DNA of 64,000 bases from Deltaproteobacteria bacterium (GTDB lineage: Bacteria; UBA10199; JACPAL01; GCA-016699445): NCBI GenBank assembly GCA_016699445.1, contig CP064976.1, positions 1,618,952 through 1,682,951 on the forward strand, written 5' to 3'. This document shows, in pieces, positions 8,700-48,463 of the stretch; within the stretch, counting starts at the first letter, position 1, and each line of letters opens with the position of its first letter. Both the position numbers and the translations under genes were made by a program. The notes beneath the pieces are model-generated. The model was given only the letters and a program-made list of their open reading frames with translations. It was not told the origin of the DNA and did no database searches.

Positions 8700-9924
8700 A
8701 CCACTTTAATTACAAAAAAAACGAACTGTATTGCGAGGATGTTTCTTTAGCACGCATTGCTCAAGAAGTAGGGACTCCAGCTTATGTCTATAGCTATGCA
8801 ACACTGACACGTCACTTTGATGTGTTTGATAAAGCTTTTGGAAAGCTGCCACATCTGGTGTGCTTTGCGATGAAGGCTAATTCCAATATTGCTATTCTTA
8901 GAGCTCTTATCAATCGGGGAGCGGGGATTGATATTGTTTCTGAGGGGAACTTTTCCGTGCACGAACAGCAGGAGCTCCAGCAAATAAAATTGTTTATTCA
9001 GGTGTTGGAAAAACACGCGAAGAAATGGCCTATGCTCTTAAAGAAGGTATTTTACAGTTTAATATCGAATCTGAAGAAGAGGTCTTTGTTTTAAATGAGG
9101 TGGCGACAAGTTTGGGTCTCAAAGCTCCTGTGTCGTTTCGGGTGAATCCGAATATTAATCCCAAAACACATCCATATATTTCGACGGGATTGAAGAAGAG
9201 TAAGTTTGGTGTGCCTTTTGAACGGGCGATTGAGATTTATGAAAAAGCACGCAAGCTTCCTGGAATTTCTGTCCAAGGCGTGAGCTGTCATATTGGATCG
9301 CAGATTACAATTCTGACGCCGTTTCGGGATGCTTTAGCTAAAGTCAGTGTCTTGGTGGCTGAGCTGCGCAAGCGGGGTTTTGATATTCGTCGTGTAGATT
9401 TGGGTGGAGGTTTGGGGATTCCTTATAAAAATGACAAAGTACCCAGCCCCAAACAGTACGCAGATATTTTGAAAAAAGGGATTAAAGAATTAGGCTGTAC
9501 GGTCATGTTTGAACCGGGTCGTGTGATTGTTGGAAATGCGGGGATCTTGCTGACGAAAGTGATGTATAAAAAAACGAGTGGGAAAAAGACGTTTGTGATT
9601 ATTGATGGAGCCATGAATGATTTGATTCGGCCCGCTTTGTATGGATCTCATCATGAAATTTTGCCAGTACAAAGAAGAAAGGCCACAATGAAAGCTGATA
9701 TTGTGGGCCCTGTATGTGAGTCGGGAGATTTTTTTGCGGAAAATAGATCGTTCCCTGCTTTAAATTCAGATGATCTTTTAGCTGTGATGAGTGCTGGTGC
9801 TTATGGGTCTGTGATGTCGTCTAATTATAATTCACGGCCTTTAGTGGCAGAAGTGATGGTAAATGGAAATGAATTTCACGTTGTTCGGCAAAGACAGGAA
9901 TATAAAGATTTATTACGTGGTTAA
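8696..9924 (+). CDS. lysA: Diaminopimelate decarboxylase, split by an apparent single-base frameshift in a G4 run at ~8944-8947
   Basis: The N-terminal part reads ..AGIDIVSEG in one frame. The rest ([41 protein letters not shown]..) reads in the -1 frame, and one extra G restores continuity. Confidence 0.85.
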
Positions 9925-9944
9925 CATGTTCCGAAATTTTTAAT

Positions 9945-10787
9945 ATGAAACTAAAATTCACAAAAATGCATGGCCTGGGAAATGATTTTATCGTTGTTAA
10001 TGGGGTTAATGGGGTAGCCGGCCGCAAAGGCACATTACCCAATTTTAAAAAAACCGGGAAAATTTTAGGCGATCGACGCTTTGGCGTGGGTTGTGATCAG
10101 ATTCTTGTTCTGAAAAATTCCAAAAAGGCCGACTTCAAGATGGAAATCTACAACTCCGATGGCAGTCAGGTGGAGATGTGCGGCAATGGGATTCGTTGTC
10201 TGGGACACTATGTGCGCACGCATAAGCTCTCGCGGAAATCAGAGCTGAGTGTTGAGACATTGGCCGGCATTCAGATTATCAAATTTTTGCCTAAGGGCTT
10301 GATTCAGGTGGATATGGGTGCGCCGGTTTTGGAAGGCTTAAAAATCCCCACGACTATTCATGGAAATATTGTGAATCACGATGTGAGTTTTGATGGTCAT
10401 CCTTTTCAGATCACGTGCGTGTCGATGGGAAATCCGCATTGTGTGATTTATGTGAAAAATGTGGATGAGTATCCCGTGCATGAGATTGGGCGCATGATTG
10501 AAACGTCCTCTATTTTTCCCAAGCGGACGAATGTGGAATTTGTGGAATTGATTTCCTCCAAAGAAGTTAAAATGCGCGTGTGGGAACGTGGAGCGGGCGA
10601 GACGTTGGCGTGTGGAAGCGGTGCTTGTGCTGTGGGTGTCGCAGGGGTTTTGAATGAAGTTCATGATCGAAAAGTGAAAGTGAATTTGCCTGGTGGGCCT
10701 TTGGTGATTGAGTGGAATCAGAAAACCAATCATGTGTTGATGACGGGACCTGCCGAGGAAGTGTTTGAAGGAGTGATACAGGTTTAG
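9945..10787 (+). CDS. dapF: Diaminopimelate epimerase
   Basis: The motifs MHGLGNDFIVV and two catalytic Cys (CGNG.., GSGACA) are present in a 280-aa protein. Confidence 0.9.
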   Translation: MKLKFTKMHGLGNDFIVVNGVNGVAGRKGTLPNFKKTGKILGDRRFGVGCDQILVLKNSKKADFKMEIYNSDGSQVEMCGNGIRCLGHYVRTHKLSRKSELSVETLAGIQIIKFLPKGLIQVDMGAPVLEGLKIPTTIHGNIVNHDVSFDGHPFQITCVSMGNPHCVIYVKNVDEYPVHEIGRMIETSSIFPKRTNVEFVELISSKEVKMRVWERGAGETLACGSGACAVGVAGVLNEVHDRKVKVNLPGGPLVIEWNQKTNHVLMTGPAEEVFEGVIQV

Positions 10788-40372: not shown

Positions 40373-41647
40373 TCAACGGTTAGAATCTATTTGGAGTGCC
40401 TGAAAGGCTTGTTTCACTTGGTTGATATCGGGATAGCGCCCTGACGGAGTTTCTGAGAGATCTGTCGTGAGACATCTCGGGAGAAACGGTTTTAATTTTT
40501 CGGGAATATTGGAGAATTTTCGGTCCTGTGGATTTCTAAGAAAAAGATCCATGTGTTTTTGCAGCTGGGAGCCTGTGGCTTGATCAAATCCTCGAAAATA
40601 AAGTTTCTCAAACAGTGTGACACCTAAGCTGTAAACATCCCCTTGGGGAGACCAAAGAAATTTTTTGTTTTTAAATTCAGGATTTCCTGAATTAATGATT
40701 TCACACTCTGCTTCCGGAGGGATATAGCCGATGGTTCCGATACGATGGTGTTGGGGTTCTTGAATCTGAAGATCACGTTCATAGACGGAAAGAGCAAAGT
40801 CACAGAGTTTGAAATTTTGGTTTGGAAAGATGAGAATATTTCCGGGCTTGATGTCTCGTAATATTAGGTGGGTGCGCGGGCTTAGTTCTCCTTCGTGGGC
40901 GGCGGCGTAGAGAGAAAGAATGGATCCTAAAGTGGCCCAATCTTCACTTTCTGTTCCCATCATAAATTTATCAAAACTTTGAAGGGCGCTCTCCATACAA
41001 ATATCAAATAAAAATGTATCGTTTGCGGAACTTTCTGTGCATCCTCCAAAATCAAGAGCTTTCACCACATGTGGACTTTCTGTCCCTAACGTCATCGCTA
41101 GTTCCATCCAAAAGCCATAGGCTGGAATCACCTTGAGGTTGAGATCAGATCTTTTGAAACGTTTAATGGCTATTTCCCGATCAGAGTTTTCCCAAAGAGA
41201 GACTTCCGAAGAGCTATGAGGCCCTTCATGAATTGTTTTTGTTTTTGAAAAATCCTTCTTAATAAAAGGAGAATCCTGGGTCCCTTCTAAAATAGCCTTA
41301 AGACGTGATAGTACTTCATCAGAATTTTCTCCTATCAAGCCACAATGTTTGAAGGCAGCTCGGTTTCCTCTTAAGACAGCTTCAGGAGATACGTTATCAT
41401 CCGGAGTGAATTGATGGGCACGATTTAAGACTTTCAATCTGTGTTGAAGATCTTTTAAAAACTGAGCTCCTTGTTCACACGAAGCATCCAGATATTGAGC
41501 TGTAGAGACTGCTTGCTGGTAATAAGTATTGAGCAAACCATCATAATCAATGGCGCCAATATTTCGAGGCGCAGGGGAAGAATCCGTCATCCACGGAAAT
41601 TGTTTTTGGAGGGCGACAAATTGTTGAGTTAGGACCGAAGTATCCAT
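40373..41647 (-). CDS. Atypical eukaryotic-like Ser/Thr kinase-like protein with a ~140-aa N-terminal extra domain
   Basis: The motifs REIAIKRF (VAIK-like), LILRDIKPGNIL (catalytic loop), KLCDFALS (DFA in place of DFG), GTIGYIPPE and DVYSLGVTLFE are present. Confidence 0.65.
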   Translation of the reverse strand: MDTSVLTQQFVALQKQFPWMTDSSPAPRNIGAIDYDGLLNTYYQQAVSTAQYLDASCEQGAQFLKDLQHRLKVLNRAHQFTPDDNVSPEAVLRGNRAAFKHCGLIGENSDEVLSRLKAILEGTQDSPFIKKDFSKTKTIHEGPHSSSEVSLWENSDREIAIKRFKRSDLNLKVIPAYGFWMELAMTLGTESPHVVKALDFGGCTESSANDTFLFDICMESALQSFDKFMMGTESEDWATLGSILSLYAAAHEGELSPRTHLILRDIKPGNILIFPNQNFKLCDFALSVYERDLQIQEPQHHRIGTIGYIPPEAECEIINSGNPEFKNKKFLWSPQGDVYSLGVTLFEKLYFRGFDQATGSQLQKHMDLFLRNPQDRKFSNIPEKLKPFLPRCLTTDLSETPSGRYPDINQVKQAFQALQIDSNR

Positions 41648-41686: not shown

Positions 41687-42262
41687 TTATTGACGGCAAA
41701 GAATAAAATATTGTCCGATCGATTTTCCTTTTTTGGTCGCTTCGCCAATAAAGACGTTTTTGGACACACGTCGCAGGTAGTCCTTCATATACCCATAAAC
41801 CAACTTTGTGAGTCCGGTTTCGTTGGATTTAATTTCCGGCCAGCCAGCGACATTTTCTTTGGGAAGTCGGGTGTAGTCCACCATGATTTCCCCTGGGCGA
41901 TCAGTAGCCTCATCAATCACAAAACATCCAGGACCTGTGATTTTTTGGAATGTCTGAAAATTATACCCCCACACTTTAGATCCATCCCCCGATCCAGAAA
42001 GAGCCATTCTTTTTTGAAAAGTTGAAAAAAGAGGAAGTGAATTTTTCCCGTAAAAAATGACTTCCTGCAAAGGTTTAGCATCGGAGGGCATCAAGTCTGA
42101 AAATTTCAAATCAGGAGTCGCGATTTGAAAAAGACAAGATTGAAACTTCCCTCCGACACTATTGATTTCCTTTAATCGATCTTCGTGACTCAACCCATCC
42201 AAAAAAGCCCCAATACTTTTTTGTGATTTCCCTGCCTTAATCATCTCAAGAAGCGACGACAT
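41687..42262 (-). CDS. Hypothetical protein, 191 aa
   Basis: An ORF with no recognised motif. Confidence 0.4.
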   Translation of the reverse strand: MSSLLEMIKAGKSQKSIGAFLDGLSHEDRLKEINSVGGKFQSCLFQIATPDLKFSDLMPSDAKPLQEVIFYGKNSLPLFSTFQKRMALSGSGDGSKVWGYNFQTFQKITGPGCFVIDEATDRPGEIMVDYTRLPKENVAGWPEIKSNETGLTKLVYGYMKDYLRRVSKNVFIGEATKKGKSIGQYFILCRQ

Positions 42263-42307: not shown

Positions 42308-43732
42308 TTATTTTTTCATCGACTCAATTAAAATCTTTGCCACTTCAGGTCGGGAAAATTCCACAGGAGGCAATGTACCTTGAGTTAAGAGCTCGCGGAC
42401 CTTGGTGCCTGAAAGTGTGACGCGGTCTTCTGCAGCGTGAGGACAGGTTTTGTTAGAAGCCATGCCTTCGCATTTTTTGCAGAAGAAAGTGTGGTCAAAG
42501 AAAAGAGGTGTGATGCCGATTTCTTCCGGTGTGAATTCATTAAAAATGAAGTGAGCATCGAAAGTGCCATAGTAATTACCCACACCGGCATGATCACGAC
42601 CAACGATAAAATGTGTGCAGCCATAATTTTTGCGGATCAAGGCATGGAAGATCGCTTCACGAGGTCCAGCATAGCGCATGGACGCAGGATTGACCGCCAA
42701 AACTGTACGATCCATAGGGTAATAATCTTTAAGCAAAACTTCATAACATTTCATACGCACGTCTGCAGGAATATCATCACCTTTGGTATCTCCCACGAGC
42801 GGGTGGATCAAAAGACCATCACAGATTTCCAAAGCGACTTTGGTCAAATATTCATGAGCACGGTGGATTGGATTGCGCGTTTGAAAAGCGACAATACGCT
42901 TCCATTTTTTTTCTACAAAAAGAGCACGCAGAGCTGAGGGATCTAATCTTTGAGGAAGAAAATCAGAATAGCTCACACGATTGAGAACTTCGACTTTTCC
43001 ACCCAAGTAGACGTCGCCTTGTTTTTTGACGACGGCCACGCCGGGATGAGCCTCTTCAGTGGTTTTGTAAACTTTTTGGCATTCGAGCTCTTTTTGAGCC
43101 AAATATTTTTCTTCCAAAAGAAGAACAGCCAATTCTTTGCCGGTTTCGTCTGTGAGTAAAATGGGTTTCCCAATGGCAAATTTTTCAGCCTCTTCTTTGC
43201 TCACAGCCAGAGTAATGGGAATCGTCCAAGGAGCCCCGTTGGCTAAGTGCATATTATTAACAACACCCAAATAATCTTTTTCCCCCATAAATCCTTCAAG
43301 AGGTGAGAGGGCGCCGCAAGCGATCATATCCAGATCACTTTTTTCACGAGAACCGAGAACGATCTTCGGAAGACTGGCTGCTTGTGAAAGCCATTGAGAA
43401 CGTTTTTGGGAATCAACCACGCGGTTGATCAGAGTGCCACCATGAGCTTCGATAGGCGCTCCACCCGCAATCGCTGGCACGATGGATAATTCATCGCCTG
43501 CTTTGACGGGTGTGGCTTCGCCATTGAGGAAACGGATATCTTCGTTGTTCACATAAAAATTAATGAAGCGGCGTAATCCACCTTTTTCATCATAGAGACG
43601 CTCTTTGATGCCGGGGTATTGTTTCTCTAAATCCGCCAAGAGGTCTTTGACGCTCGCGCCAGCAGCGGAGACTTCGCCTAAGTTGGCGGTGATTTTTTGT
43701 AGGGGTGTGGGGATGCGGACTTTGATCGACAT
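42308..43732 (-). CDS. sat: Sulfate adenylyltransferase (ATP sulfurylase) with an in-frame N-terminal MoaD/ThiS-like ubiquitin-fold sulfur-carrier domain ending in Gly-Gly
   Basis: Residues 1-91 (MSIKVRIP...KAGDELSIVPAIAGG) resemble MoaD, including a C-terminal ..GG. They are followed directly by the canonical Sat N-terminus APIEAHGGTLINRV, then QTRNPIHRAHE and GRDHAG, for 474 aa in total. Confidence 0.85.
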   Translation of the reverse strand: MSIKVRIPTPLQKITANLGEVSAAGASVKDLLADLEKQYPGIKERLYDEKGGLRRFINFYVNNEDIRFLNGEATPVKAGDELSIVPAIAGGAPIEAHGGTLINRVVDSQKRSQWLSQAASLPKIVLGSREKSDLDMIACGALSPLEGFMGEKDYLGVVNNMHLANGAPWTIPITLAVSKEEAEKFAIGKPILLTDETGKELAVLLLEEKYLAQKELECQKVYKTTEEAHPGVAVVKKQGDVYLGGKVEVLNRVSYSDFLPQRLDPSALRALFVEKKWKRIVAFQTRNPIHRAHEYLTKVALEICDGLLIHPLVGDTKGDDIPADVRMKCYEVLLKDYYPMDRTVLAVNPASMRYAGPREAIFHALIRKNYGCTHFIVGRDHAGVGNYYGTFDAHFIFNEFTPEEIGITPLFFDHTFFCKKCEGMASNKTCPHAAEDRVTLSGTKVRELLTQGTLPPVEFSRPEVAKILIESMKK

Positions 43733-43742
43733 ATATTTCTCC

Positions 43743-44204
43743 TTAAATTATTTTTTTTTGGTTGTAACCTTTCAGGGATTCGTCCCAGAAAAATTCGTTA
43801 ATTTCTTTTAACTCTCTGTTGTAAATCGATACCACTAAATACGAAATGCCGGGATAGCTGGGCTCTCCCCACGGAGCGGCGACTAGGCGATCTTCTTCTG
43901 AAAAATAAGCGTCGTGCTCGCAATGTGAATGGTAAATACATTTCACTTCTTGTCTGTTTTTTTCAGCTTCATCAAAAATACGCTGCTGTTCTTTTGGATC
44001 AATCAAGTAGGCAGTTTTAGCAGTGCGTGGGTATTGATCCGGATATTTTTCATGCATGTCGTTATAAATATTTTTGATCGGAATAAATTCCGCCACAGAC
44101 TCTTGACCTTTGTCTCCAATTAACAATCCACAGGATTCGTCAGGCCAATGTTTTTTGGCGTAAGCGACAATCGTCTCAATTGTTTTATCGCAAATAATCG
44201 TCAT
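43743..44204 (-). CDS. JAMM/MPN+ metalloprotease (Mec+/CysO-hydrolase-like)
   Basis: The JAMM motif HSHCEHDAYFSEED (H-x-H-x7-S-x2-D) and the upstream conserved Glu (ESCG) are present in a 153-aa protein. Confidence 0.8.
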   Translation of the reverse strand: MTIICDKTIETIVAYAKKHWPDESCGLLIGDKGQESVAEFIPIKNIYNDMHEKYPDQYPRTAKTAYLIDPKEQQRIFDEAEKNRQEVKCIYHSHCEHDAYFSEEDRLVAAPWGEPSYPGISYLVVSIYNRELKEINEFFWDESLKGYNQKKII

Positions 44205-45490: not shown

Positions 45491-46717
45491 TCAATGCAGC
45501 ATCCACCTCATCAATTCGGGGTTGATGATCGTTGGTTTGCCGACATGTCCTGTCATGGCTTCCTGGGTTTTGAGGCCATTGCCAGTGATACAGATGACGA
45601 CCGATTCATCTTTTTTAATTTTACCCAGCTTGATTAATTTCTTAGCCACACCCGTGGTGACGCCACCAGCTGTCTCAGTAAAGATACCTTCGGTTTCACC
45701 CAAAAGTTTAATCGCTTCGACAATTTCTTCATCGGACACATCTTCACTCCAGCCCCCTGTTTCTTTCATCGACTGCATGGCGTAAAAACCATCGGCTGGA
45801 TTTCCAATCGCTAGCGACTTGGCGATGGTGTTGGGTTTGACCGGTTTGAAAAGTTCCCAATCATTTTTTAAGGCTGTTGCAATGGGCGAACATCCCGTGG
45901 CTTGAGCCCCGTGGACTTTGCATTTTGGGTCGGTATTGTCAGTAAGGAGGCCGATCTTATGAAACTCCTTCATCGCTTTATGGACTTTGGTTAAAAGAGA
46001 TCCACTGGCCATCGGCACGACGACGTGATTAGGCACTTTCCATCCCAACTGCTCCATCATTTCATAAGCCAATGTTTTGGATCCTTCAGCGTAGTAAGGG
46101 CGGATGTTGATATTGACGAAAGCCCATTTATACTTGGCTCCGATTTCACTGCAGAGACGATTGACTTCATCGTAGGTGCCGCGAATGCCAATCACGTTAG
46201 CCCCATAGACAAGGGTGCCCAAGACTTTACCTGCTTCCAAATCATAAGGAATAAAGACGTAACATTCGAGTCCCGCTGAGGCAGCATTGGCCGCGACAGA
46301 GTTGGCGAGATTTCCCGTCGACGCGCACGAGACGGTTTTAAAACCAAACTCTTTGGCTTTTGAAAGTGCGACAGAAACCACACGATCTTTAAATGAAAGA
46401 GTGGGGTAGCAAACAGCATCGTTTTTAACCCAAACTTCTTTGACGCCTAAAGCTTTCGCCAAATTTTTAGCAGGAACCAATGGTGTGTATCCTGCGAGAA
46501 CTCCCACGGTAGGATCTTTTTCGATAGGAAGAAGCTCTCGGTAACGCCACATGGTTTGAGGACGCTTTTCAATTTTTTCTCGTGTGAGAGATTTGGCAAT
46601 CTGGTCGTAATTGTAATCCACTTCCAGAGGACCAAAACAAAATTCACAGACATGAGTGGGTGCGATCGGAAAATGATGACCACACTCGCGACACTTAAGA
46701 CCTTTTATGTATGACAT
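45491..46717 (-). CDS. Threonine-synthase-family PLP enzyme with an N-terminal Cys4 zinc ribbon
   Basis: The ribbon is KCRECGHH..CEFCFG. The ThrC PLP-lysine motif TLSFKDRVVS and Gly-rich loops are present. The ORF track extends to 46774 and overlaps the upstream gene. Confidence 0.8.
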   Translation of the reverse strand: MSYIKGLKCRECGHHFPIAPTHVCEFCFGPLEVDYNYDQIAKSLTREKIEKRPQTMWRYRELLPIEKDPTVGVLAGYTPLVPAKNLAKALGVKEVWVKNDAVCYPTLSFKDRVVSVALSKAKEFGFKTVSCASTGNLANSVAANAASAGLECYVFIPYDLEAGKVLGTLVYGANVIGIRGTYDEVNRLCSEIGAKYKWAFVNINIRPYYAEGSKTLAYEMMEQLGWKVPNHVVVPMASGSLLTKVHKAMKEFHKIGLLTDNTDPKCKVHGAQATGCSPIATALKNDWELFKPVKPNTIAKSLAIGNPADGFYAMQSMKETGGWSEDVSDEEIVEAIKLLGETEGIFTETAGGVTTGVAKKLIKLGKIKKDESVVICITGNGLKTQEAMTGHVGKPTIINPELMRWMLH

Positions 46718-46727
46718 ATATTTGCTC

Positions 46728-47527
46728 CTAATGAATAAATTTCTTCTGCAAACTAAAATATCTTTCTCCGCCATCGGGAAAGACAGTGACGACAGTTTTA
46801 TTTTTATCTATTTGCTGAGCGATCTGACGACTCGCCACAAAAGCGGCTCCGCACGAGATGCCCACCAGCAAACCTTCTTTTTGAGCGACTTCACGAGCGC
46901 CTAAAAAAGCTTCTTCATCGGTGATCGTGATGATCTCATCCACCAAAGAACGATCCAAGATCGTGGGAACAAATCCCGGGCCGATTCCTTGAATCTTATG
47001 ATGCCCCACTTTCCCTTGGCTGAGAGTCGGTGACGCAGCGGGTTCTACCGCAATGATTTTGGTTCCGTTCTTCTTTAAAATTTGAGCCGCTCCCATCAGC
47101 GTCCCGCTCGTTCCGATACCGGCGACGAAAAAATCGATCGGTTTCCCGAGATCCTTTTGAATCTCCTGAATTGTCTGATGATGCGCTTTGGGCGTTTCTT
47201 CATTTTCAAACTGATCAAAAAAATACGCGTCTGTTTTTTGGCATAATTCTTTGGCCCGATCGAGAGCGCCTTTATCCCAATATAAGCCAATCCAATCCCC
47301 GAATTTCCCGTCGTCGCGGCCACAATAGTGCCGCGAGCCGCGAGCCGCGAGCTCTTCTCCGCTTTCTCTAGAAGGTGTATGACAACTCGATCTTTAACCG
47401 AACCACCTGGATTATACTTCTCCAGCTTGGCATACACGGACGCACACCCCTCTGGCAGGCTTTTACTCAGCCTTAAAAGGGGGGTATTTCCAATGGCTTC
47501 AAGCAACGATTCCATAATAAGATCCAC
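46728..47527 (-). pseudogene. O-acetylserine sulfhydrylase (CysK/MccA-like) pseudogene with an internal ~115-bp out-of-frame deletion
   Basis: The N-terminal 110 aa (..NPGGSVKDR..TTGNSGIGLAYIG) and the C-terminal ~200 aa (DKGALDRAKEL..FVAGIGTSGTL..GIGPGF..) are CysK-like but lie in different frames. About 39 aa of the conserved core (..YKL.LTMPE..ERR.LL.A.GA.LVLT..) is absent between them. A (ccgcgag)x3 heptamer tandem sits at 47331-47351. Confidence 0.7.
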
Positions 47528-47531
47528 AAAT

Positions 47532-47700
47532 AAAAAAACCTCTTCCAGATAAGAAGAGGTGTGATTGAAGGTCTCTTCTCATCTGTCCCCATCTGCATTT
47601 AACTGCAGGGTTGGAGTTAGCACCATTTCTCCTTTTTTTTAGGAGACGGTTGCTGTGACGTCTTAGGGCCTTTCCCTCGGTCACTCTTGATAAGGTGCCG
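47532..47700 (-). ncRNA. SAM-I (S-box) riboswitch with an intrinsic terminator expression platform
   Basis: The minus-strand RNA reads CACCUUAUCAAGAGUGACCGAGGGAAAGGCCCUAAGACGUCACAGCAACC..GGAGAAAUGGUGCUAACUCCAACCCUGCAGUUAAAUGCAGAUGGGGACAGAUGAGAAGAG. This matches the S-box core (UUAUCAAGAG.G..GAGGGA..GGCCC.A.GA..GCAACC, AUGGUGCUAA.UCC..CUGCAG, GAUGAGAG). A CCUCUUC/GAAGAGG hairpin plus U7 follows at 47532-47559, immediately upstream of the cysK-like start. Confidence 0.8.
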
Positions 47701-47701
47701 C

Positions 47702-47731
47702 AAAGTAGGGGAAATGGGAGGTTGTTGTCAA
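47702..47731 (-). promoter_or_regulatory. Putative sigma70-type promoter of the riboswitch-led operon
   Basis: A minus-strand TTGACA (47726-47731) is separated by an 18-nt spacer from TACTTT (47702-47707). This places the TSS at the riboswitch P1 helix. Confidence 0.4.
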
Positions 47732-47793: not shown

Positions 47794-48144
47794 ATGAGAA
47801 GATTGTTTGTTGAAGCTGAGGGGTTTCGTAAGAGAATAGATCAATTAAAACAACCTCTACTGTTACGTTTAATTCAGAATGAAATTTTAAAAGATCCTCA
47901 TCGAGGGACTGTGATTCCTGGTTTGGGAGGGTTAAGAAAAATAAGAATTGGAGATGTAGAAAAAGGAAAAGGTAAACGGGGTGGATATAGAGTTGTTTAG
48001 CTAGATTTGATGAAGAAAGAAAAAACATATCTGATTTGGATTTATTCTAAGAACGAATCTGAGGATATGACCCCAGACGAAAAGAAAACCATTCGCCATT
48101 TGGTGGATGTATTAAAGAAGGAGAATCAATCGTATGAAAACTAA
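47794..48144 (+). pseudogene. HigB/RelE-family toxin interrupted by an in-frame TAG at 47998-48000
   Basis: The sequence ..ILKDPHRGTVIPGLGGLRKIRIGDVEKGKGKRGGYRVV* resembles this family. The downstream in-frame continuation LDLMKKEKTYLIWIYSKNE..LVDVLKKENQSYEN is the expected C-terminal half of the same family. Confidence 0.55.
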
Positions 48145-48463
48145 AATGGGCCAAGCCTTAATTGAAGGGTTAAATGATATTGTTGAATATGAAAAAGGGA
48201 AAAAGAAGTTGAGATCTTCTTTTATGGATATTCCACCACCAGCGCCTGTGTGGAGTCAGAAGAAAATATCTAAATTGCGTAAGGAGGTTTTTAAAGTGAG
48301 TCAGACCGTTTTTGCTGCGATGTTGAGTGTGAAGCCTGCAACAATTCGTGCCTGGGAGCAGGGACTGAAATCTCCTTCTGGAGCTGCAAACCGTTTGATT
48401 CAAATTATTTCTATTTCTCCCGATATTTTTAAAAAATTAGCTCTCATCTCCATCAGAGGTTGA
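48134..48463 (+). CDS. HTH (XRE-family) antitoxin, HigA-like
   Basis: The HTH segment is SQTVFAAMLSVKPATIRAWEQG. The gene overlaps the 3' end of the toxin remnant. Confidence 0.55.
   Translation: MKTKMGQALIEGLNDIVEYEKGKKKLRSSFMDIPPPAPVWSQKKISKLRKEVFKVSQTVFAAMLSVKPATIRAWEQGLKSPSGAANRLIQIISISPDIFKKLALISIRG

Follow-up and report, generated by a model that had tools for sequence, protein, structure and literature searches.

Results

A sulfur amino-acid gene cluster behind a structured leader

The window, by which we mean the entire 64-kb stretch of DNA that was analyzed, carries on its minus strand a cluster of genes for sulfur amino-acid metabolism that is preceded by a structured leader (Table 1). 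A cysK-like pseudogene (psi-cysK) stands at the head of this cluster and is followed by genes for a ThrC-family enzyme, a NIL-domain protein, a CysM-like PLP enzyme, a JAB/MPN metalloprotease, and a ThiS/MoaD-like sulfur carrier that is joined to sulfate adenylyltransferase (Sat). The genes mostly overlap or are separated by at most about 20 nt; the gap before the NIL gene amounts to 32-86 nt, depending on the start codon. No convincing minus-strand terminator was found within the cluster. The ATG of the ThrC-family gene is preceded by AGGAG at a distance of 7 nt.

Table 1. Coordinates of the leader elements and genes of the cluster in the window.
Feature	Position	Strand	Basis
Candidate -35 box TTGACA	47726..47731	-	read from sequence; conserved in L001; function inferred
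Candidate -10 box TACTTT, 18 nt past -35	47702..47707	-	weak evidence
SAM-I (S-box) aptamer	47576..47696	-	RF00162, MFE fold, covariation over 47 leaders
Aptamer helix P1	47694-47689 with 47583-47578	-	
Antiterminator helix, 47585-47573 with 47558-47546	47546..47585	-	13 bp, -18.2 kcal/mol
Intrinsic terminator, 9-bp stem and 5-nt loop (47560-47538), then U-tract	47532..47560	-	terminator scan
cysK-like pseudogene	46728..47515	-	ATG at 47515, frame 0 to ~47276; C-terminal part in other frame, stop at 46728
ThrC-family enzyme, N-terminal Zn-ribbon, probable MetM	45491..46717	-	TIGR00260, 284 bits
NIL-domain protein, 93 aa	45123..45404	-	PF09383, E 2e-11; conserved behind metM in the window's clade
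CysM-like PLP enzyme, 300 aa	44201..45103	-	TIGR01138, 357 bits, equivalog cutoff of 394 not reached; PF00291
JAB/MPN (Mec-like) metalloprotease	43743..44204	-	PF14464, E 6e-20
ThiS/MoaD-like sulfur carrier fused in frame to sulfate adenylyltransferase	42308..43732	-	PF02597, PF14306 and PF01747

For comparison, we relied on 80 loci from GTDB representative genomes that had been retrieved with the MetM-like protein. The nearest MetM proteins are those of three metagenome-assembled genomes (MAGs): L001 (uncultured Pseudomonadota, 90%), L055 (labelled 'bacterium', 83%), and L002 (Myxococcota, 82%). Exact-protein matches to the MetM of the window (searched with two starts) or to its ThiS-Sat protein were absent from the collections queried; the CysM-like protein had an exact match on a single 3.5-kb Logan contig. 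A protein-based scan of metagenomes returned relatives of at most 86% identity and no contig from the same species.

MetM has been described as a homocysteine synthase whose substrates are O-phosphohomoserine and the thiocarboxylated form of MetO, a sulfur-carrier protein that Mec matures and MoeZ activates; according to the same source, the enzyme is 'often misannotated' as threonine synthase (GapMind 2026 preprint, doi 10.1101/2024.10.14.618325). A ThrC homologue, a ThiS domain and a JAB protease share one operon in the window, as the MetM/MetO route requires; a ThiF/MoeZ-type activating enzyme was not found between 47.5 and 42.3 kb. Judged from its sequence, the ThrC-family enzyme is probably a MetM-type homocysteine synthase, and this appears likelier than a function as a true ThrC. 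The NIL-domain protein was also considered as a candidate for MetO and was rejected, since it is a ThiS-like gene that directly follows metM in most related loci, and since the MetO of the literature is a carrier matured by Mec.

The tail of the operon departs from that of its relatives. The ThiS-Sat junction at about 43461-43450 reads '...AIAGG-APIEAHGG...'; the separate thiS genes of L001, L002, L081, L082, and L086 end with AIAGG, one to two further residues and a stop codon, and sat possesses its own start methionine in these loci. Among the six genomes compared, the fusion was found only in the window. As a carrier of this type needs a free Gly-Gly end, its release from the ThiS-Sat protein would require cleavage by the adjoining JAB protease. 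In L001, a 445-aa ATPase-like gene (9337..10674) is inserted between thiS and sat. Together with the fusion in the window, this insertion indicates that the operon tail is under rearrangement in more than one lineage. Two further co-directional genes lie downstream of sat: 41687..42262 (-) encodes a protein of 191 aa that has no NCBIfam match and is 84% identical to its counterpart at the same position in L001, and 40373..41647 (-) encodes a protein of 424 aa with a kinase-like C-terminal region.

On the other side of the leader, a RelE/HigB-like toxin ORF (47794..48144, +) contains a TAG stop codon in frame (47998-48000; '...GGYRVV*LDLMKKEKTYLIWIYSKNE...'), and the adjoining HTH/MqsA-like antitoxin gene (48134..48463, +) is intact. 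The corresponding position of L001 contains no such pair, which suggests that a toxin-antitoxin module, its toxin now dead, was inserted here.

The first gene of the operon is a pseudogene

The gene directly behind the leader had been read as a cysK-like pseudogene in the first-pass annotation of this DNA, a reading that our analysis bears out. In the three-frame translation of 47530..46700, the N-terminus of CysK ('MESLLEAIGNTPLL...GNSGIGLAYIG') is encoded in one frame, and its C-terminus ('KGALDRAKEL...DGGERYFSLQKKFIH*') in a different one. The hand-spliced protein lacks positions ~81-113 of TIGR01139 and reaches 278 bits, short of the 351-bit cutoff, and its alignment with intact homologues contains a gap of 38 columns ('NVKKLKVILTMPEN...TPAEEGM') exactly where the frame changes. 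At the junction (47276-47273), the sequence runs ATTGGG (47281-47276), AT, AAAGGC, and approximately 115 nt have been lost (38-39 codons; congruent to 1 mod 3). We rejected the idea that programmed frameshifting could rescue cysK, since 38 conserved residues are missing from the sequence itself. To judge from the coding sequence, psi-cysK is a real pseudogene that arose recently through one internal deletion with a frameshift.

Two further details of psi-cysK are placed on record here. In the sequence TGATG (47098..47094, -), the premature TGA of the frameshifted ORF overlaps with an ATG that is in frame with the C-terminal fragment and at which ribosomes could re-initiate and thereby keep the psi-cysK mRNA translated; this arrangement is possibly due to chance. 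Furthermore, the 5' part of psi-cysK contains a perfect tandem repeat of the heptanucleotide GCTCGCG (coding strand; 3.3 copies, 47330..47352) that encodes 'SSRLAARG'. The repeat does not itself shift the frame, since the length of this region is the same in the relatives.

An uninterrupted cysK gene is found beside metM in nine relatives, as judged from ORFs or tblastn matches, among them L001, L055, and L002 with full-length ORFs of 299-319 aa, and L082, L083, L087, L089, and L094 with single unbroken tblastn matches. The gene is absent from this position in L081, L085, and L086. On these gene orders, cysK appears as an optional first member of the operon. The cysK sequence of the window has diverged from the L001 copy faster than its neighbours (pN 0.36; only pN and pS are quoted throughout, dS being saturated), and its identity of 46%, compared with about 90% for the adjacent genes, fits relaxed selection prior to the loss of the gene.

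Could the pseudogene be an artefact of sequencing or assembly, the real genome possessing an intact cysK? Beyond the effect of the single junction, both halves are free of stop codons and retain conserved residues on either side, and the ThiS-Sat fusion constitutes a second odd junction in the same operon. The operon has two lesions peculiar to its lineage (the deletion in cysK, and this fusion); together with the nonsense codon in the toxin gene, they make either local decay or an assembly error conceivable. However, the loss concerns some 115 nt of unique coding sequence and is no homopolymer slip, cysK is dispensable at this position in the three relatives that lack it, and it evolves far faster than the genes next to it. 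We consequently regard an artefact as unlikely.

The leader contains a conventional SAM-I aptamer

A SAM-I (S-box) riboswitch had been assigned to the minus strand at 47698..47571 in the first-pass annotation, which named a covariance-model search as the way to verify it. This search (cmscan, Rfam 15) identified RF00162, the SAM riboswitch (S-box leader), at 47696..47576 (-) with 74.5 bits and an E-value of 1.3e-15, so that the coordinates agree. The match lies 30 bits above the gathering score of the family (44.4 bits), spans model positions 1-108 of 108 and is hence not truncated; no other Rfam family scored above its gathering threshold anywhere in the 64-kb window. The four-way junction with P1-P4 and a two-part P2 is the MFE fold of the isolated aptamer (-42.7 kcal/mol), and P1, P2, P3, and P4 are likewise backed by covariation over 47 leaders. 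The genomic position, according to the operon annotation and the literature, is that expected of the family: upstream of methionine and cysteine biosynthesis genes.

The claim that the S-box core is matched almost residue for residue needs a qualification. At the sequence level, the SAM-contacting core (AUC-AGAG, GCAACC, and GGUGC-AA in P1, J1/2, P3, and J3/4) is present in full, and the window agrees with 36 of the 43 columns that are conserved to at least 90% in the other leaders, five of the seven mismatches falling into compensated pairs. The G-A dinucleotides of the P2 kink-turn region align with the consensus in the RF00162 alignment, read as sequence. The pseudoknot between the P2 loop and J3/4 is the part that deviates: it reads AAGG/CCAA in the window and in L001, and thus comprises two Watson-Crick G-C pairs (GG/CC) and two A.A oppositions, whereas the relatives form 4 bp (CAGG/CCUG or CUGG/CCAG). 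In addition, the P2 internal loop has CC at 47680-47679, a place taken by UG in 42-45 of 46 relatives. Because both peculiarities are shared by L001, in which the operon is intact, the reduced pseudoknot and the odd P2 loop should be viewed as traits of the lineage and not as decay. Given these departures, the affinity of the window's aptamer for SAM could differ from that of model S-boxes. The element is a genuine and conventional SAM-I riboswitch; its family and fold are established, and we infer from them that it binds SAM.

Expression platform and candidate promoter

A terminator was correctly anticipated behind the aptamer, as was its U7 tract (TTTTTTATTT); its stem is longer and less rich in G-C pairs than the 7-bp GC-rich hairpin that had been envisaged, in that it consists of 9 bp with four G-C pairs and one G.U pair. 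The hairpin alone has a predicted energy of -12.2 kcal/mol. The earlier proposal that the 3' strand of P1 overlaps an antiterminator holds as well: CAGAUGAGAAGAG (47585..47573), which includes this strand, can pair with CUCUUCUUAUCUG (47558..47546), which corresponds to the 5' arm and the loop of the terminator. When explicit structures were evaluated over 47696..47531, the OFF state (P1 plus terminator) and the ON state (antiterminator, no P1) came to -55.5 and -52.3 kcal/mol, respectively, i.e., they are about 3 kcal/mol apart. Two mutually exclusive states of nearly equal energy represent the classic S-box layout, in which ligand-stabilized P1 decides the outcome. The termination mechanism, and its operation in vivo, would follow from this layout.

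A functional riboswitch might instead act mainly at the level of translation or through Rho. The U-tract ends about 16 nt before the ATG of cysK, so that the terminator also buries the region of a would-be ribosome-binding site, and the approximately 380 nt of psi-cysK mRNA beyond the premature stop codon could invite Rho-dependent polarity. Yet there is no Shine-Dalgarno sequence evident in the leader ahead of psi-cysK that could be sequestered, the 13-bp antiterminator exists and excludes the terminator, and hairpin and U7 are conserved in four divergent leaders, with stem pairing kept by compensatory changes in L001, L055, and L016. We therefore judge such a route to be quite improbable as the main mode of action, and intrinsic termination is the reading that we retain.

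The promoter is the least certain part of the leader. The hexamers TTGACA and TACTTT, separated by 18 nt, are present just as the first-pass annotation had listed them, and the -35 box is perfect; TACTTT matches TATAAT in three of six positions only, which is why the promoter is missing from the output of a consensus scan. The 64-kb window contains 24 copies of TTGACA, counted over both strands. L001 retains TTGACA and its upstream flank, and reads TACGGA in place of the -10 box. Its divergent upstream gene begins only about 98 nt from the aptamer, and the promoter of L001 must consequently be located within this stretch. In the window, the -10 box ends 5 nt ahead of the aptamer, and the transcription start predicted from it approximately coincides with the first nucleotide of P1, a tight spacing. 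The TTGACA/TACTTT promoter is plausible but unproven, and its use is suggested by these motifs.

Distribution and conservation of the riboswitch-metM arrangement

SAM-I control of metM is widespread. Using a covariance model built from the aptamers of the window, L001, and L016, we found that a SAM-I element in coding orientation precedes the metM homologue at 46 of the 80 genome loci and at 23 of 80 metagenome loci (69/160 overall). The genome loci that bear the element belong to Zetaproteobacteria, to Solirubrobacterales, and to the uncultured clade of the window; the model found none in the Thermodesulfobacteriota, Dadabacteria, Spirochaetia, Polyangia, and Acidobacteriota among the 80 loci. 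Rfam itself recognizes RF00162 in L001, L055, and L016 with 71-76 bits. The order riboswitch-cysK-metM is found in L001, L055, L083, L089, and L094, and riboswitch-metM with cysK missing in L085, L086, and Zetaproteobacteria. In two loci, L002 (5015..5974) and L082 (2089..2985), cysK-metM is present but no SAM riboswitch was detected; the intergenic region ahead of cysK in L002 measures less than 80 nt, and the search of this locus gave no SAM riboswitch even at E below 1. The element has thus been lost or replaced, and is dispensable, in some close lineages.

Several leaders contain SAM-I matches of 89-97 nt that lack P4 (L055, 4933..5021; L065, 5831..5927; and about 18 other Solirubrobacterales loci). 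In these, J3/4 runs straight into the 3' strand of P1, and the L055 element still attains 75.8 bits against RF00162. They could represent P4-less SAM-I variants or variants resembling SAM-I/IV.

In an alignment of 47 leaders, which was fitted to the covariance model and is to be read with this caveat, 91% of the cells fall into standard pairs, compared with about 42% (40-48%) when the partners are slid against each other; compensatory double changes occur in 20 of 38 pairs, and none of 500 shuffles reached the covariation score. From promoter to terminator, the leader is 79% identical to that of L001 (190/241 aligned positions), and synonymous sites between the two genomes are saturated (pS 0.83-0.87). 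This degree of identity despite saturation indicates that the leader is under purifying selection. ThiS, MetM, the CysM-like enzyme, and the JAB protease are 87-93% identical to their L001 counterparts, with pN values of 0.05-0.07. Where the two leaders differ in P1, P3, and the terminator stem, pairing is kept (in P3, for instance, UCUCC/GGAGA versus UCCCC/GGGGA). A DNA probe of the terminator matched only the window and L001 among the local loci, and none of the metagenome contigs.

The broken first gene, the abnormal ThiS-Sat fusion, the in-frame TAG in the neighbouring toxin gene, and the weakened pseudoknot might together suggest a non-functional relic in a decaying operon, too recent to have degraded, but this is very improbable in view of the low pN values of the intact metM, cysM-like, JAB, and ThiS genes against saturated synonymous sites, the recurrence of the same pseudoknot in front of the intact operon of L001, the pairing-preserving nature of the aptamer differences, a score far over the gathering threshold, and the normal coding density elsewhere in the window.

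Discussion

A regulatory model for the leader and its operon

The data lend themselves to a reading that we consider very likely: the segment 47731..47532 (-) leads into an operon for sulfur amino acids and contains a standard SAM-I 'off' riboswitch that is kept under selection by five intact genes. Transcription probably begins just past the TTGACA/TACTTT motifs. When SAM is abundant, it would bind to the aptamer, lock P1 and sequester its 3' strand; the hairpin and U-tract would then form, and RNA polymerase would stop ahead of the genes. At low SAM levels, this strand of P1 would be free to join the 5' arm of the terminator, and read-through into psi-cysK and the genes for the MetM-like enzyme, the NIL protein, the CysM-like enzyme, the JAB protease, and ThiS-Sat would ensue. 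The operon would in this way provide a protein-thiocarboxylate route to homocysteine and methionine, and probably to cysteine as well.

The initial description of the locus had emphasized that the regulatory RNA is intact while the first gene that it controls has decayed. Both observations stand, and there is no paradox in them: the RNA stays under selection because five intact genes, including the MetM-type enzyme, remain governed by it, and the status of cysK as an optional gene at the operon head explains how the RNA could outlive it once the single internal deletion, as we reconstruct it, had inactivated this gene.

A more far-reaching picture, which we put forward as a doubtful one, is that of a remodelled operon in which one SAM-I riboswitch gates a cysteine and a homocysteine branch that share a ThiS-type carrier. 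ThiS-Sat would then be a polyprotein cut by the operon's own JAB protease in a manner resembling ubiquitin fusions, the dead cysK, given the ATG that overlaps its premature TGA, would be no more than a lengthy stretch of translated spacer, and the weak pseudoknot could retune the range of SAM concentrations to which the switch responds. Irrespective of this picture, the locus is of practical value for annotation, as it combines a confident SAM-I call with a 'threonine synthase' behind it that is more likely a MetM. The current understanding of riboswitches is unchallenged by this element.

Comparison with known systems

With the S-boxes assembled in Rfam RF00162, such as the Bacillus subtilis yitJ and metE leaders and the Thermoanaerobacter tengcongensis metF aptamer, the window shares the P1-P4 junction, the nucleotides of J1/2, P3, and J3/4, a terminator/antiterminator platform that is switched by the 3' strand of P1, and a methionine/cysteine gene context. 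It differs from them in having two Watson-Crick pseudoknot pairs, where S-boxes usually have four, and in its unusual P2 internal-loop bases. Its host belongs to an uncultured lineage, not to the Firmicutes, and the nearest genomes are MAGs labelled Pseudomonadota or Myxococcota. The SAM-IV and SAM-I/IV riboswitches (clan CL00012) possess the same ligand-binding core; P4 of the window, in contrast, is normal and at the SAM-I position, and clan competition retained RF00162.

The CysO-CysM-Mec pathway of Mycobacterium tuberculosis, reportedly described by Burns et al. in 2005, produces cysteine by way of a thiocarboxylate. The window likewise has adjacent genes for a CysM-like enzyme, a JAB protease, and a ThiS-like carrier. 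In contrast to the M. tuberculosis system, this cluster is joined to metM under one SAM riboswitch, and no MoeZ/ThiF was seen in the operon.

The closest precedent is provided by Streptomyces albulus, whose metM has an upstream SAM riboswitch (Hasebe et al., 2024, cited in PMC12172450, doi 10.1101/2024.10.14.618325). As far as the citing accounts describe it, a SAM riboswitch stands in S. albulus over a ThrC-like MetM, a sulfur carrier, and a Mec-type JAB protease, as it does in the window. Measured against this description, the window has psi-cysK between riboswitch and metM, additional genes for a NIL protein, a CysM-like enzyme, and ATP sulfurylase, and a carrier that is fused to Sat. The riboswitch class is well known, and control of metM by a SAM riboswitch has already been published; the window represents a further instance of this regulatory arrangement.
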